Positions 29,229 through 56,808 of a DNA stretch of 64,000 bases are shown here, in pieces. The translations under genes were made by a program, and so were the position numbers. The DNA lies in the NCBI GenBank assembly GCA_965178125.1, contig OZ237735.1, positions 1 to 64,000 of the forward strand. Reading direction: 5' to 3'. This DNA comes from Bilabrum cf. latius. Taxonomy: Eukaryota. Positions within the stretch are counted from its first letter, which is position 1. The number at the start of each line of letters is the position of its first letter. The notes beneath the pieces are model-generated. The model was not told the origin of the DNA. It made no database searches and saw nothing but the letters and a program-made list of their open reading frames with translations.

Positions 29229-30377
29229 TTAATCCAGGGCCATATCCTCCTCACGGAGCCCGCCTCGCGATGCCATTGCCGCTGGCATCGTACGCAGCCC
29301 ACTCAGCTCCGCCTGCACCTCTCGCGCCTAGAGCCCCTGCCGATAGGCTCGGTACTGACTCAGCACCATTCTCTAGGCTTGCATGGCTGGGTCCGTCATA
29401 ATGTCGTCCCACGGCCCGCATGTCCATCTGAGGATGCCCGGGGACTGCACCAGCGACTGCCTCCACTCTGCCACAGAGGTGTTTGTGTATGCGTGCTGCC
29501 CCCCCTGGACCACGGAGAAAGCAGCAACCCCTTCATCCCCTGTCCCTGCAGCGATGACGTGGGTGGAGAACTCGGCTGGCGTGCCAGCGAAGGTGCTCCT
29601 ATTCCAGGCAAGGTTGGAGGCAACGGCGGCAGCGTACTCCTAGAGGTCTCGCGGGGACAGGACGCCAGCAGCCACTGCCGAAGCATTAATCATTATGTTA
29701 AGCTACAAACGCCCTCCGAACGTTGCTTCCTGCAAAAAACCGCTGCGGAACTGCTGCTGGAATTCATCCAGCAGCTCCAATGCGCTTGCGTCGCTTGCAT
29801 TGAAGGCTGCAGGCAGCCGCCCGATCGACCGGGTCAGGATCGTGCCAGCTGCTAGCGACGGCTACACAATTTGCTAGATAACATACATTTGCTGCAGCAC
29901 GGAGCACTGGGCTAAGACAGCCGAGCCGTTCAAGAACACTCCCTCGAACATCGCAGTGGGAGATCGATAGCTCGACACCCAGTCGCCGTACTTGCGCTGC
30001 ACGTGAGACTGCCTCCATCGGAAGTAAGCATCAACGGTTAAAAACACGTCGCAGTCGATCAGATCCTTGCCTGAACCGTTTGGGTCGTATCCAGTGATTG
30101 TTGAGCCAACCGGGATGCTGTGTGTGACCATCGTCCCGTTTGATGTCTCCGATGCATTTACGATTAACGTCCACATCTAGGGTATGACACCTGCAGGCTA
30201 CGACCTGGAAGTGTAGGCTTGCGTGCCACCCTTTGACAGGGTATCGGCGCCAAAATCAACCAAATCACACACGTACGACCAAGCATCGATGCCAGGGAGA
30301 GGTGGGCTGCTGGCCTTAGAGAGCAACACTAGCACCAATAGAATGAGTGCAACAGGACTACCAGCTATCATACTCAT
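29229..30377 (-). CDS. Secreted divergent MACPF-like protein D, 382 aa
   Basis: Signal peptide; EFQQQFRSGFLQEATFGG; WRQSLVQSPGILRWTCGPW; eight TAGs; TAA stop; paralog of E. Confidence 0.72.
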
Positions 30378-30741
30378 GCAGAAGAGGCAAAGTGTCCAGG
30401 ATCGCCTCCCTACGCCGTGTGACGAACACCCCAGACGCTTCACAGCACTGCACTGCACTCTACAAGTCGCCTCAATTCTGCTTGCTTGCTTGCTTGTCGG
30501 CAAAACTGGCGTCGTGGGGGCACGCGTACAAAGTAGGGCGTCCGCATAGGCAGGCAGCGGGCTGCCAGTGACACGACTAACAATGCCAGTGGGTACCAGT
30601 GGGGGGAGGGAAAGGTGCATGCACCATTGCAATCGATGTGCTGAAGTCGACTATGTAATCGCATGCGCGGAACCATATCCGGACAAATGTGCCGTATACA
30701 TCGATCAATTAGGCGCAGGTATAGTGCAGGCCGCTGTCTCA

Positions 30742-31863
30742 TCAGCCATCCGGCAGTGCTTGCAGCTGTTCCTGGATGACTCGATTCTTGGTCCAGATCA
30801 CCCGACTCCTGTACTGGTTCAGAGCAGTGCGCTAGGACTGCAGCTCTGCATCATCGATGATGTTCTCCCAGGGCTCGCAGGTCCACTGCGTCACCGCTGG
30901 CCCTTCCTGCACAAAGCCTCTCCAAGTGCTGGCATTGGTACCTGCTGGCAGGGGCTGGCTCCCGTTGGTGCCCCCGCGCACCACGTTGAACACATTCATG
31001 TCCTCCAGGCCCGTGCCCAGCACCAAAATAGCCGACTGAAAGGCCGTAGACACGCCATCCAGCTGCTTTCTGCCTGCTAGCACGTTGTCTACGATCCTGC
31101 TGCTTTCGGATTCCAGCGAGGACAGGGAGAGGCCACCTGCCGAGACCGCATGCGCTGCAACCTTGATATCGAGACCTACCAGACCACCAAAGTATGCTGC
31201 AGCGAGATAACCTCCCCTGAACTTATCGTGAAAGCTGTCATATGCGTGCCAAGTGGACTCGTTCAGTGCGGGGGGCAGCTCTCGAATGGCGCCGTGCAGC
31301 GGTGAACCAGCCATCACAGTTGGCTGCACCTGTTGAGCTATACCAATGAGAGTAACAAGCACTGAGCATTCCACTAGCATGGCAGTCCCATTATTAAAAT
31401 CGTCAAAGTGAGTTTCTGTCGGGAGGGGTCGCTGCGGCAGCCATACGTTCCTATTCTTCGCGATCATGTCCTGCCGCCAGTCGTAGTACGCCGTTGTTGT
31501 TGGAAATGCATGGCATTCAACCATCGGCGAAGAATTTGCAGACGGATTTGATACTGCAGGCAACACTGCACTCGGCAGCTAGTACGAAATTGTCTTGTTG
31601 TCGTTGCCAACCACGGACCACAGGCTTGGTTGGGTAAACCAGGGCTAGCCACGTTCAATAGAAACGTCATTCTTCGTTGTAGGCTCAACAAATGCCTGCA
31701 AGGCATCGCCAAATGTGGTCATGTCGCAGTACGAGTACCATGACAAGCCTACGAGACCGTCAATGCTTTCTGGGCTCGCTGCCGCAGCTGAAGGGGGCAG
31801 ATACAGCGCCAACAGAGAGGTGGATACACGAAGCAAGCAGACAGTGCAAATGGATCGTGCCAT
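30742..31863 (-). CDS. Secreted divergent MACPF-like protein E, 373 aa
   Basis: Signal peptide; YDSFHDKFRGGYLAAAYFGG; WRGFVQEGPAVTQWTCEPW; three TAGs; TGA stop; collinear with D. Confidence 0.72.
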
Positions 31864-32041
31864 TCCTGGCTAAATGCGTAGAATTAAAATGAATGCCGAC
31901 CATGGGTCAAACCGGAATCCACTGGCGGTAGATCTAGTCCCGGCTGCCACTGGCAGTGGTAGTCGCCACCGCTGGCCCACCAAGTTGGCACCAGCGGTCG
32001 TAAGCAATGGAATTATATTCTCGATAGCGAACCAGTTCAAA

Positions 32042-54423: not shown

Positions 54424-54605
54424 GCGGGCAAGCTGTTTTGAGCGATCGTGAATCGACGGGTCGGTTCAAGAGGCTCCGGGTCAAAAGCTGGCGGGCACAC
54501 ACGCGTTTCCAACAAGTTCGGTTGCGGGAATAAATCATCAAAGTCTGGTGTGGGTTACAAACCAATGTATCTCGAAACCCCGGCCCCCTGCTGGTCTCTC
54601 GTTCA

Positions 54606-55924
54606 TCATGTCTGCGGGGCCTTGAGCGCGAGGGCAGTCTCCTTGGCGCTCTCAGCTGCCGAGCCCCTGCGGTCCTGCTCCTGGATGTCCAGCAAGTGCC
54701 CACCCGTGCGGTACATGTGCAGCCAGTTGAACCCGGGGGACTCCATCGAGGTTGCCTCAAGGTCCAGATCGTGCAATCGCTTGGTGGCGGCTCCCGTGTC
54801 GAGCACGCAGTCGGTCCCGAAGAGCTTCATCTTCTCGGGGTGCACGAGCGGCAGGGGCAGCACGCCCGCCACCCTGCCCAGGATGTCTGCCTGCTGCCTC
54901 GTCAGGTTGATGAACAGTGGGTTCTGCGAGCGGGTGGCCTCGAAGACGTACTCGGCCACCTCGCGCACCGAGTAAACATCGGGGCCTGCCAGGTCGTACG
55001 TCTGCCCCAGCATGACGTCGGGGTCGTCAGAGGTGGCGATGCGGTAGATGGATCGGGCCACGTCCAGGCAGTAAATGGGCTGTGTCAGCGCCGCTCCTCC
55101 CTCCACGAGGGGCACCCTGGGCATGTACTCGGCCACCTTGGCGAACCAGTTGAGGAAGCGGTCCTCGGGGCCGAAGATGTCGGCGGGCCGCACGATGGTG
55201 GCACCGGGCGCCACGGAGCGCACGTTCTCCTCGCCCTGCGCCTTGGAGCTGGCCCACCTGCTGAGACTGGTGGGGTCAGCCGCCAGCGCAGAGGTGTGGA
55301 TGTAGTTGCCCACGCCGGTCTCAAGGCAAGCCTCCGCCAGGCGGGCTGGGAACTCAGCGTTCACCTCATCGAATCCAAAGTTGATGTCCCATGGAAGGAG
55401 ATGCGACGTTTCCCATTCTCGGCTAACCATGTTGATAACGACCTCACTTCCTTCGCAGAAGCGCTTCAAGTCGTCATCGCTTCGTGGATCGTACGGAGCT
55501 AGCCCTACCATGCCGTAGTCTCCCATGATCTGCAAATGACGCACCTCCATATCGTCTCCACGAAACGGAACGATGACCCTATTTCCATGACTTGCAAGAT
55601 AGTATGTCACATATCGCCCCAAAAAGCCCGTCGCACCGAATATTGTGACGGTACGACCAGTCTGGCTCGCTCGGGACTCGTGGTTTGGGCCCCCGGCCCC
55701 TGCCGCCGTTCCCATGCTTCTCATAACACCCTGCGAGGCAGTATGTATGCGATTAAAATATATCCACGACGGTGAGCACAGACGTATTTTCGTCAAACCC
55801 CGGTAGGCGGGCGCTCCAATGTAATGTTGCCTCATGAGGTCGAAAGACTCACCCCATAGGCAAAGTTTTGTGATCTTTGGGCTGCCAATCCAATTCGGCG
55901 TCCAACCTATAACCTTCTGAGCAT
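54606..55924 (-). CDS. NDUFA9: NADH:ubiquinone oxidoreductase 39-kDa subunit, 398 aa
   Basis: Motifs TIFGATGFLGRYV, VIVPFRGDD, TIVRPADIFGPEDRFLN and QPIYCLDVA; Arg-rich targeting peptide. Intron 55731-55852; TAG at 55907; TGA stop. Confidence 0.93.
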
Positions 55925-56069
55925 TTCCAATGTGCAGATAAGTGCAGTGGAGCCCGTCAAATAGCAATTCAACATTCCATCGCCTCGGGCATCCATTTAT
56001 AGCGCGTACATTACTAGTAATTCAGATTTCATTTCAATCCGTTTGATGGCCATTTTCTGTAGGGTTGAA

Positions 56070-56808
56070 ATGGATTTGTCTGTCCCGTCGAAAGAGTTTG
56101 ATGAAGATCAAATCGATTCCCTCCCTGCTCCAGCGGATGTAGAAGAAAGAGGCAATGTTGAGGTCGCCGCAGATGCATTTGTTCAGTGCGCTTATCGAAG
56201 CAGCAGTGCATCAGGGCCGCATCGGTTATTGAAAGCGTAGCAGCTAGGCTCGCTTGCCCTGTAGTATATCGAAAGAAGTCATGCGTCACTCCTTGAAGCC
56301 GCATCAACGCAAGAACACGATGTTTCGGATCTCGAGGCACGCAGCTCAAGAGCCAGGAAGGAGTACCGAAAGGCTGTAAGCACACGAATTAAAGCGCTTG
56401 ACGGCATCCAATAAATATTGCAAATAGTTCAGATTCATGCATCCGTTTGGCACCCGGTTATTGCAGAAAAGCGAGCTCAGCAAAGAGAAGGCGAGGCTAG
56501 CAGCAATAGACAGGTAGCTAGCTGCGTGCTAGGTTACTTGCAGAGCGCTCGGCGAACCAGGCACTCGGGTCCAGGGACCAGTCACCCATCAGAGCAAAGC
56601 TGCACCCCCTTCCGCCGACGGCCAGAGCGACCGCAGCTCGCTATCTTCCTCGGGCGTTGGGCATGGCCTGCACATTTCCGCGGCAGGCGCCTCCCGCCCC
56701 GAGCACCTGATCCCTGGCATTCACGCGCCTCAGGGTGCCAGCGAAAGGAGGGGCCGCGCAGACCAAGGAGCTAGGCAAAGCGATGAAGACTCCATGGATG
56801 GAGACTAA
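56070..56808 (+). CDS. Hypothetical coiled-coil protein, weakly similar to the DZIP1 N-terminus, 215 aa
   Basis: Open with four TAGs and intron 56376-56466; LLKAQQLGSLALQYI motif; TAA stop. Confidence 0.5.

Follow-up and report, generated by a model that had tools for sequence, protein, structure and literature searches.

A chromosome-end window and its genes

The window, meaning the whole stretch of 64,000 nucleotides that was analysed, begins with a telomeric (CCCTAA)n array (1..470, +) and is thus the end of a chromosome-scale contig (C1) of a eukaryote. The assembly it belongs to is chromosome-scale, with a genome of 48.6 Mb and a GC3 of 0.78. The genes and sites of interest are collected in Table 1. 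Both introns of the NEK-like kinase are joined in spliced contigs, and its coding score continues until six codons upstream of the TAA at 43036. In the MACPF-like gene, positions 29229-29231 read TTA on the forward strand, i.e., TAA on the reverse; this codon lies about 20 residues past the end of homology with a tandem paralogue and is a plausible true end of the gene. Reading through the TAA of the 223-aa gene would add 130 codons and run into a convergent Nop25-like gene. The AP-2 alpha orthologue of a relative is split by a stop where Gln is conserved.

Table 1. Genes and in-frame TAG codons of the window, and the tRNA-CUA gene located elsewhere in the genome.
Feature	Position	Strand	Remarks
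Aconitase	9582..11888	-	TAG at 0 of 20 Gln codons; TGA end
eIF6, in-frame TAG	18329..18331	-	aligns to Gln of best PDB match (VEVFR-Q-T)
eIF6, in-frame TAG	18278..18280	-	aligns to Gln (FSN-Q-GG)
MACPF-like gene with internal TAG codons	29229..30377	-	TAA at 29229-29231, plausible end
NEK-like kinase, 1165 aa	39286..43038	+	introns 39418-39563, 39921-40029; TAG 40987, 41089, 42106; TAA 43036-43038
TAG codon of NEK-like kinase	40987..40989	+	CAG in related organism (run X4)
AP-2 alpha	46180..49417	-	without TAG; TGA end
223-aa gene	56046..56808	+	intron 56376-56466 (contig-supported); TAG 56238, 56262, 56515, 56530; TAA 56806-56808
RAD51C, in-frame TAG	59308..59310	+	immediately 3' of Walker A motif; aligns to Gln (GKT-Q)
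tRNA-CUA	G000:C23:907607-907679	-	Rfam score 69.8 bits (rank 2 of 48 matches); complete cloverleaf

The host is most likely a heterotrophic stramenopile of the bicosoecid type. In an eRF1 tree (FastTree; a single gene with a long branch and one named bicosoecid) it falls into a clade of ten that includes Bicosoecida sp. CB-2014 and has a support of 1.0, and a PRP8 tree, likewise of a single gene, places it outside oomycetes and ochrophytes, one neighbouring cluster holding a protein labelled Symbiodinium. Contig C111, assumed to be the host's, uses mitochondrial code 4 and carries tRNA-Trp(UCA) and a short nad11; the same traits, which are not unique to the group, are described for the mitochondria of Cafeteria and Cafileria in the available text of PMC6723347. 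The best named protein matches show 74–75% (eRF1), 78–79% (PRP8) and 78% (cox1) identity. A metagenome scan with eRF1 gave 79 loci, with full-length matches at 53–71% identity and no close one; TAS was read at all 76 of 76 motif matches of these loci.

Stop codons in use and the meaning of UAG

The first-pass annotation had described 27 hand models, 24 ending in TGA and three in TAA (29229-29231, -; 43036-43038 and 56806-56808, +). All three TAA codons were located as described, and the ratio of 24 to 3 agrees with the automatic calls once 29229 and 56806 are added, a comparison made on totals; the calls for positions 6001-64000 comprise 22 terminal segments, 21 with TGA and one with TAA. Its broader proposal, that UAA is a stop, UAG is sense and UGA is the main terminator, is borne out genome-wide. 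The terminal segments called over 568 kb number 155; of these, 139 end in TGA (about 90%) and 16 in TAA. A Cys (prenylation) motif closes 20 of 30 Ras loci, and the stop that follows it is TGA in 16, TAA in four and TAG in none (hand tally). TAA also ends histone H4 (…YGFGG), one H3 (…RGERS), one alpha-tubulin and eRF1. Two kinds of observation had been named as able to overturn the proposal, and neither was encountered: in-frame TAA at conserved positions was not seen, the TAA codons within 148 kinase and 65 Ras matches being intronic, and no gene that could end only at TAG occurred among the 20 Ras genes whose end is marked by the Cys motif or the histone, tubulin and proteasome genes. TGA codons within domain matches lie at exon edges in four of the four examined, with C13:416403, C3:224594 and C2:1277197 outside that count. 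UGA terminates and, selenoproteins aside, is not a sense codon.

In the last 40 codons before called stops, TAG was seen 32 times against 24 expected (p = 0.07), so that TAG may end a small share of genes; depletion of TAG near gene ends was not found in the automatic terminal segments. UGA dominance is expected for GC-rich genomes, according to the text available of PMC9348620, and here it is probably an effect of GC content for which a special mechanism is needless. Its share of some nine-tenths of gene ends would stem mainly from the high GC content and from UAG having dropped out as a stop.

UAG encodes Gln in the nuclear code. Codon meanings were inferred from leave-one-out profiles of 57 kinase and 42 Ras domains with 85 TAG sites, the kinase sample being drawn from 40 ten-kilobase regions of 60 planned. 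At these sites the log-likelihoods (in nats) were 49.4 for Q, 8.3 for E, -13 for K, -133.8 for L and -139.5 for Y, placing Q 41 nats ahead of E, and without the commonest column Q still came first (27.0 vs 6.0, 77 sites). As a control, the same inference recovered 60 of 61 sense codons. The best Tyr admixture at TAG was 0; the slight fits of Glu (0.25) or Lys (0.30) mixtures compare with 0.20 for both in a CAG/CAA control. TAG occupies the catalytic Gln column of Ras eight times. Genome-wide, about 85 TAG codons fall within 57 of 148 kinase-domain matches, compared with two TAA and three TGA (hand tally), all five of which lie at exon edges adjoining splice sites. The single-copy essential genes for eRF1, eIF6, PRP8 and proteasome subunits carry in-frame TAG, on many contigs, and no TAA or TGA.

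TAG aligns to Gln at both eIF6 sites and at one of two in RAD51C (the other being Ser), and one eRF1 site is Q in 115 of 117 homologues. Against Gln, one TAG of PRP8 stands at a position that is His in 47 of 48 homologues, and the TAG at position 69 of eRF1 at one that is Leu in 111 of 117. In locus L092, a TAG 11 codons upstream of the Cys-containing C-terminus is sense. Two database proteins of a relative (93–94% identity, N-terminal part) end just before a site where 80 of 86 homologues have Gln, and the TAG/CAG swap at 40987 would be synonymous if TAG is Gln. Over 19.9 kb, only 4 and 5 differences from the DNA occur in the spliced contigs of runs X1 and X3, which are presumed to be RNA and show no poly(A) ends; editing therefore does not remove TAG. 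TAG makes up 1 of 195 Gln codons in housekeeping genes and 283 of 3243 overall (about 9%).

A tRNA with a CUA anticodon and a diverged eRF1

A tRNA that reads UAG alone had been predicted, and one gene with a CUA anticodon was found (Table 1). The companion prediction, that a tRNA-UUA should be absent, also held within the reach of pattern searches: their 3, 5 and 17 matches included no nuclear tRNA-UUA, and an atypical or intron-bearing gene could escape them. ARAGORN labels the CUA tRNA 'Pyl', which reflects its anticodon only, given the canonical cloverleaf and a codon inference of Gln.

The acceptor and anticodon stems of the tRNA-CUA match the genome's tRNA-Tyr at 20 of 24 positions (12/14 and 8/10), the next best tRNA reaching 12, and the same comparison gives at most 17 in 287 pairs whose two tRNAs serve different amino acids. 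The corresponding values are 6/14 and 6/10 for tRNA-Gln(CUG), and 2/14 and 4/10 for tRNA-Gln(UUG). C1:G72 occurs only in the tRNA-CUA and tRNA-Tyr, the genome's Gln tRNAs beginning with G1:C72, and the variable loop has 5 nt in the former two and 4 nt in both Gln tRNAs. The D stem, however, is identical to that of tRNA-Gln(UUG) at 8 of 8 positions, and overall identities are 50 to Tyr, 49 to Gln(UUG) and 44 to Gln(CUG); with that figure, and an acceptor stem of 6/14, an origin of the tRNA-CUA from tRNA-Gln(CUG) by one anticodon change is not supported. Pattern searches of the genome did not find tRNA-Trp, -His or -Leu, one of them, for His and Asp together, having no match at all, and a further one for tRNA-Trp gave none among the 30 matches examined of 220, so the ancestor comparison lacks tRNA-Trp(CCA). 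One D-arm pattern missed the real tRNA-Gln(CUG), hence such searches can overlook tRNAs. The most likely origin of the tRNA-CUA, judging from these likenesses, is tRNA-Tyr(GUA) by a G34C change.

Where tRNA-Tyr has A73 the tRNA-CUA has G73, together with G2:C71, and it keeps the U35 and A36 of Tyr. Mutants of E. coli supF with G73 are a case in which an amber tRNA-Tyr is mischarged with Gln. The cited text of PMC9976931 lists A73 and C1-G72 for Tyr identity in eukaryotes and G73 and G2-C71 for Gln identity in bacteria, with no table entry for eukaryotic Gln; E. coli GlnRS can charge amber tRNA-Tyr variants with Gln (PMC1483225, from the part available). The tRNA-CUA is presumably expressed and charged with Gln. 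The host GlnRS has Gly in place of Arg at human FKRL, an observation set aside as evidence for want of a standard-code control.

The genome has a single eRF1, with changes in the region of the stop-codon pocket: S60V, G29A, N30D, I35V, N129S and K130H. Homologues sharing these residues are absent for V60 (0/117), A29 and D30 (0/110 each), V35 (0/116) and H130 (0/117), and S129 (12/117) and Q69 (4/117) are less rare. T32, E55, Y125 and NIKS are retained, as are the UGA-reading S33 and S70. I35 is part of a hydrophobic cluster surrounding the third base (PMC5681627), N129 and L69 have been linked to a third-position G (PMC4381064), and a screen for amber read-through enriched the yeast equivalent of N129S (PMC12440015). 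This eRF1 may reject G at the third stop-codon position; as the organism is long-branched, some of the changes may be drift.

Interpretation, alternatives and known codes

The course of events we propose is that a tRNA-Tyr(GUA) acquired the CUA anticodon by G34C and would then have switched identity to Gln, in that G73 replaced the Tyr discriminator A73, while G2:C71 and a D stem of the Gln type were gained. This dedicated tRNA would read UAG; since CUA pairs with UAG and not UAA, UAA would be left to eRF1. Drift around the stop-codon pocket would have made eRF1 a weak competitor at UAG, with S33 and S70 kept for UGA. The explanation as a whole (UAG as Gln, UAA and UGA as stops, a Tyr-derived tRNA-CUA, a drifted eRF1 and GC-driven UGA dominance) is considered highly probable.

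An alternative that shares this code, which we hold to be unlikely though deserving of attention, derives the tRNA-CUA from tRNA-Gln or an unsampled tRNA such as tRNA-Trp, its Tyr likeness being due to convergence or a recombination mosaic. The Gln(UUG)-like D stem, the common G73, the near-equal overall identities to Tyr and Gln(UUG) and the missing tRNA-Trp can be read in this way, and descent from a tRNA-Gln is what has been predicted for Iotanema, tRNA-Gln(CUG) being the source expected in the literature (PMC5304391, as far as its available text goes); yet the stems, the 5-nt variable loop and C1:G72 are all Tyr-like, contrary to a Gln origin. It is more improbable that UAG is context-dependent, encoding Gln within genes and ending some of them, with an omnipotent eRF1 mostly outcompeted. 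Such decoding would suit the retained T32, E55, Y125 and NIKS, the one tRNA-CUA gene found, the near-absence of TAG from housekeeping genes, as expected of slow or leaky decoding, and the slightly raised TAG count just ahead of called stops (p = 0.07). However, genes with recognisable C-termini include none that ends in TAG, the TAG of L092 is sense, and the context-dependent codes of Condylostoma, karyorelicts and Blastocrithidia end genes at the reassigned codon and deplete it near ends, neither of which is seen here.

That UAG specifies another residue (Tyr, Leu as in exLh, Glu/Lys) or is ambiguous is very improbable: the Tyr identity parts of the tRNA (C1:G72, U35, A36) and isolated sites on Leu or His columns would fit, but Q is far ahead, the Tyr admixture is 0, TAG stands eight times at the catalytic Gln of Ras, and a relative has CAG in its place. 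Hardly credible at all is an artefact of misassembly, pseudogenes, short introns or edited mRNA under a standard code, a general possibility for which nothing further was found, because TAG alone interrupts essential genes, the X1/X3 contigs show the same letters and the cognate tRNA is present.

The preferred reading, with UAG as Gln and UAA and UGA as stops, corresponds to NCBI table 15 (Iotanema type) and is already known from Iotanema and three ciliates; there are several earlier cases of UAG parting from UAA (PMC5304391, PMC11687900, in the text available). In Iotanema spirale (Fornicata), an unrelated lineage, UAG is likewise Gln and never terminal, on a similar type of evidence (PMC5304391, PMC9161772). 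According to the accessible parts of these sources, its genes end mostly in UAA (104:15), whereas here UGA leads by about 9:1; its eRF1 has T32G, whereas the present protein retains T32 and is changed at S60, G29, N30, I35, N129 and K130; and no suppressor tRNA is known for it, whereas one is identified here. The ciliates Hartmannula sinica and Trochilia petrani (Phyllopharyngea) and Protocruzia tuzeti also read UAG as Gln with UAA as stop. By the available account (PMC11687900), UAA ends 86.9–98.3% of genes in five recoded phyllopharyngeans, in contrast to the UGA dominance seen here, UAG makes up 18.5–31.8% of Gln codons in those ciliates against about 9% here, and a suppressor tRNA was not found for the two phyllopharyngeans with UAG as Gln.

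Decoupling as here is also described, in the text available, for the rhizarian exLh and TARA ciliate MAGs (UAG as Leu) and for Scotinosphaera (UAG as Ser) (PMC5304391, PMC11687900). The CUA tRNA of two MAGs derives from tRNA-Leu, for the same amino acid, while the body here is apparently that of Tyr, and position 69 of eRF1 carries L69A in exLh and Gln here. Laboratory amber suppressors resemble the present tRNA in a CUA on a Tyr body with U35 as the common handle (PMC1483225, as accessible); they are products of engineering, were assayed with E. coli GlnRS and work only weakly, whereas this tRNA is natural and would serve the whole nuclear proteome. The organisms of NCBI table 6 (Tetrahymena, hexamitid diplomonads, ulvophytes, Amoeboaphelidium) likewise have UAG as Gln and mostly UGA stops, but read UAA as Gln too, whereas here UAA is a stop, no in-frame UAA lay at Gln positions of the domain matches and the pattern searches found no nuclear tRNA-UUA. 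To our knowledge, the meanings of UAA and UAG almost always shift jointly.

No nuclear code reassignment in stramenopiles or bicosoecids was found in the literature searched, subscription papers lying outside it. As far as the searches reach, the stramenopile lineage, the UGA dominance and the apparently Tyr-derived tRNA are new. We suggest only tentatively that they add up to the first nuclear code change in Stramenopiles, the first natural capture of a stop codon by a tRNA-Tyr then taken over by the Gln synthetase, and a half-way stage to UAR as Gln. The few earlier UAG-only cases in the literature available draw mainly on transcriptomes or incomplete genomes, from organisms that prefer UAA. 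In the present case one chromosome-scale genome provides the codon usage, the suppressor tRNA, the GlnRS and an eRF1 altered unlike that of Iotanema, so that two questions become testable, how an eRF1 could recognise UAA and UGA while passing over UAG, and from where suppressor tRNAs arise. We know of no eRF1 blind to UAG alone that is available for amber-suppression engineering in eukaryotes. Standard annotation truncates the genes of this lineage, which is therefore hidden in protein databases. If the suggestion is correct, the organism, in which UAA ends only about one gene in ten, would be a living intermediate without the UAA lock of AT-rich cases, and a switch from Tyr to Gln would mean that the frequent outcome of UAG as Gln need not start from a Gln tRNA.

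Coding content of the window and placement of the organism

The assembly comprises 48.6 Mb in 111 contigs, and the window, the first 64,000 bases of contig C1, starts with a subtelomere of (CCCTAA)n arrays and tandem units of about 155 bp. With TAG translated as sense, 18 of its 30 long frames gave Pfam matches, to families including aconitase, eIF6, TPS/TPP, AP-2 alpha, RAD51, a NEK-like kinase and four MACPF proteins, and GT-AG introns of window genes were found joined in contigs of public sequencing runs. Near the telomere, a MACPF/perforin-like cluster consists of the four Pfam matches plus two unmatched paralogues of 31% mutual identity. 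The CBM20 starch-binding domain and the TPS-TPP fusion downstream lie in different frames but probably belong to one gene with an intron.

Coordinates of features in the window and of two loci elsewhere in the genome
Feature	Position	Remarks
(CCCTAA)n array	1-470	terminal
Tandem array	1540-3200	~155-bp units, between (CCCTAA)n arrays
(CCCTAA)n array	3264-3530	interstitial
(CCCTAA)n array	4325-4593	interstitial
Housekeeping-set gene	9582-11888	
CBM20/TPS-TPP region	12208-17788	long frame contains 12 TAG
MACPF/perforin-like cluster	20960-36677	
19-C run	29210-29228	adjoins TAA at 29229; homopolymer length possibly uncertain
TAA	29229	closes MACPF-like ORF, ~20 residues beyond end of homology with neighbour
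TAA	43036	closes 1165-aa kinase; model with contig-supported introns
Housekeeping-set gene	46180-49191	
TAA	56806	closes 223-aa gene; model with contig-supported introns
Second 18S rRNA	C95:6099-7900	
tRNA-Val-like 3' half	C1:1887196	one of the copies

The organism is probably a heterotrophic stramenopile, a bicosoecid, as judged from single-gene trees that include just one named bicosoecid. In the eRF1 tree (FastTree; 111 of 118 sequences retained, each of at least 380 residues) it joins Bicosoecida sp. CB-2014 in a clade of 10 members with support of 1.0, and a PRP8 tree built from 49 selected sequences places it among unnamed ones and with neither oomycetes nor ochrophytes. The mitochondrial contig C111 reads TGA as Trp, as is also reported for mitochondria of Cafeteria and Cafileria (PMC6723347). 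C111 has 38,401 bp, 24% GC, a short nad11-like ORF and just 10 tRNA genes called by ARAGORN, so heavy tRNA import would be needed. A second 18S rRNA gene, only 78–83% like the tandem copies on contig C12 and presumably resembling the dinoflagellate type, is probably that of a contaminant or food organism.

The meaning of TAG and the usage of stop codons

The observed pattern of stop and sense codons is real: UAA and UGA are stops and UAG is not. That UAG specifies Gln beside these two stops is almost certain. Across the genome, 148 kinase matches hold about 85 internal TAG, in 57 matches (hand tally), and two TAA and three TGA, all five at exon edges. A leave-one-out profile test of 85 TAG sites (57 kinase and 42 Ras domains, 630 kb of genome) scored Q at 49.4, E at 8.3, K at −13.3, L at −133.8 and Y at −139.5; it recovered 60 of 61 sense codons. 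Two TAG of eIF6 align to Gln, as does one of two in RAD51C, the other aligning to Ser. Counter-evidence comes from this Ser site, one PRP8 TAG site that is His in 47/48 homologues, and one in eRF1 that is Leu in 111/117. Contigs of runs X1 and X3, whose RNA status is a guess though introns are skipped, show only 4 and 5 differences from the DNA in 19.9 kb, so the TAG codon is not edited. The TAG at 40987 is CAG in the related organism X4; it is one of 15 changes listed for that exon, 12 others of which are synonymous, with 551 more differences beyond the listed ones. TAG makes up 283 of 3243 Gln codons overall and one of 195 in a housekeeping set that includes two window genes; since that set is almost all CAG (192, with 2 CAA), TAG behaves as a non-optimal codon.

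The first-pass annotation had proposed a dominant UGA with UAA kept as a stop, from 24 TGA and three TAA ends. The three TAA triplets are indeed present, and the ratio agrees with automatic calls of terminal segments in the window (21 TGA, 1 TAA) once the other two TAA ends are added. A 568-kb sample gave 155 terminal coding segments (139 TGA, 16 TAA), a tally blind to TAG ends by construction, of which the strictest filter kept 71 (65 TGA, 6 TAA). TAG occurs 32 times within the last 40 codons against 24 expected (p = 0.07), so TAG-ending genes are a small minority at most. No in-frame TAA was seen at conserved sites, those in kinase matches sitting at exon edges, nor any gene ending only at TAG: 20 of 30 Ras-family loci carry a terminal Cys prenylation-type motif, and the codon after it is TGA at 16 of them and TAA at 4 (hand tally), the remaining 10 lacking the motif or being internal exons. 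Proteasome loci end in TGA in 13 of 14 cases, the fourteenth being an internal exon, and TAA ends histone H4, one H3 variant, one alpha-tubulin and eRF1. The TAA share, 16/155, is below the 25% predicted from 3' flank composition (p = 7e-6); TGA use is reported to increase with G+C (PMC9348620), and GC3 here is 0.78.

The suppressor tRNA and eRF1

The CUA-only tRNA that had been predicted was found as one gene on nuclear contig C23, single-copy by DNA search, with a complete cloverleaf fold and 69.8 bits against Rfam. Pattern searches for tRNA-UUA gave 3, 5 and 17 matches, none a nuclear tRNA-UUA, and the genome retains tRNA-Gln(CUG) (two copies) and tRNA-Gln(UUG) (one). In an arm-by-arm comparison with 25 distinct nuclear tRNAs, a set without tRNA-Phe, the suppressor matches tRNA-Tyr(GUA) at 12/14 acceptor-stem and 8/10 anticodon-stem bases; its second-best total is 12/24, and in 287 pairings of tRNAs that differ in amino acid the count never rises above 17/24. 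C1:G72 and a 5-nt variable loop are also common to both, and Tyr ancestry appears likely. Searches of the genome found no tRNA-Trp, -His or -Leu, so Trp ancestry may be an alternative. A Gln/Tyr mosaic is possible; the D stem is identical to that of tRNA-Gln(UUG), and the suppressor carries G73 and G2:C71 against A73 and U2:A71 in tRNA-Tyr. Eukaryotic Tyr identity is described as defined by A73 and C1-G72, and bacterial Gln elements as including G73 and G2-C71 (PMC9976931), while E. coli GlnRS is reported to charge some Gln onto amber tRNA-Tyr variants (PMC1483225). With Tyr ancestry, an amber suppressor would have switched its identity to Gln. The anticodon-binding domain of GlnRS (contig C33) has Gly in place of the Arg of human FKRL, which should correspond to Arg402 of E. 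coli, a residue that contacts G36; this change may ease A36 reading, but lineages with the standard code may often have it as well.

G34, uncommon in eukaryotic Ile and Val boxes, is carried by nuclear tRNA-Ile(GAT) and tRNA-Val(GAC), alongside Ala, Thr and Arg tRNAs with A34. Scattered copies resembling tRNA-Met(CAT) have an AT-rich flank in common, and their acceptor stem is almost that of tRNA-Pro(TGG); they may be a mobile element or reflect a further instance of tRNA recruitment. A tRNA-Val-like 3' half, in at least 11 identical copies and not called a tRNA by Rfam, is a SINE-like repeat.

Searches detected one gene each for eRF1 and Pelota. The eRF1 (439 residues, two TAG codons, three predicted introns) retains G31-T32-S33, E55, NIKS, S70, Y125, C127 and F131 (human numbering), and S33 and S70 are reported to be required for UGA recognition (PMC4381064). 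G29A, N30D, I35V, S60V and K130H each occur in none of 110–117 top homologues, N129S in 12/117 and L69Q in 4/117. I35 is described as lining the third base (PMC5681627), L69 and N129 are tied to third-position G (PMC4381064), and an amber read-through screen enriched yeast N126S (PMC12440015). These substitutions fit a weakening at UAG, and the protein is probably UAG-blind. A long branch could account for part of the changes, identity to Bicosoecida being 0.68 in the N domain against 0.75 in the M domain. T32G, the solution of Iotanema, is not used here.

Relation to known codes

The accessible text of published work (PMC11687900, PMC5304391, PMC9161772) describes UAG as Gln, UAA and UGA remaining stops, in Iotanema spirale, Hartmannula sinica, Trochilia petrani and Protocruzia tuzeti, UAG as Leu in the rhizarian exLh and three TARA ciliates, and UAG as Ser in Scotinosphaera; the code type is thus known, but rare. 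UAG-only cases for which that text gives figures have UAA-dominated ends (104:15, 56:15, 86.9–98.3%), a dominance argued to lock UAA as a stop (PMC11687900), whereas UAA closes about one gene in ten here. A literature search, covering few subscription papers so that a prior report is possible, found no stramenopile nuclear reassignment and no Tyr-derived Gln suppressor. In another relative, two database proteins, compared at the level of protein sequence, stop right before a site that is Gln in 80/86 homologues; AP-2 alpha is split in the database at this conserved Gln, which suggests that the code may extend to other species and cause mis-annotation. The novelty appears to lie in the lineage and in stop usage dominated by UGA, but most of all in a suppressor tRNA that seems to stem from tRNA-Tyr.
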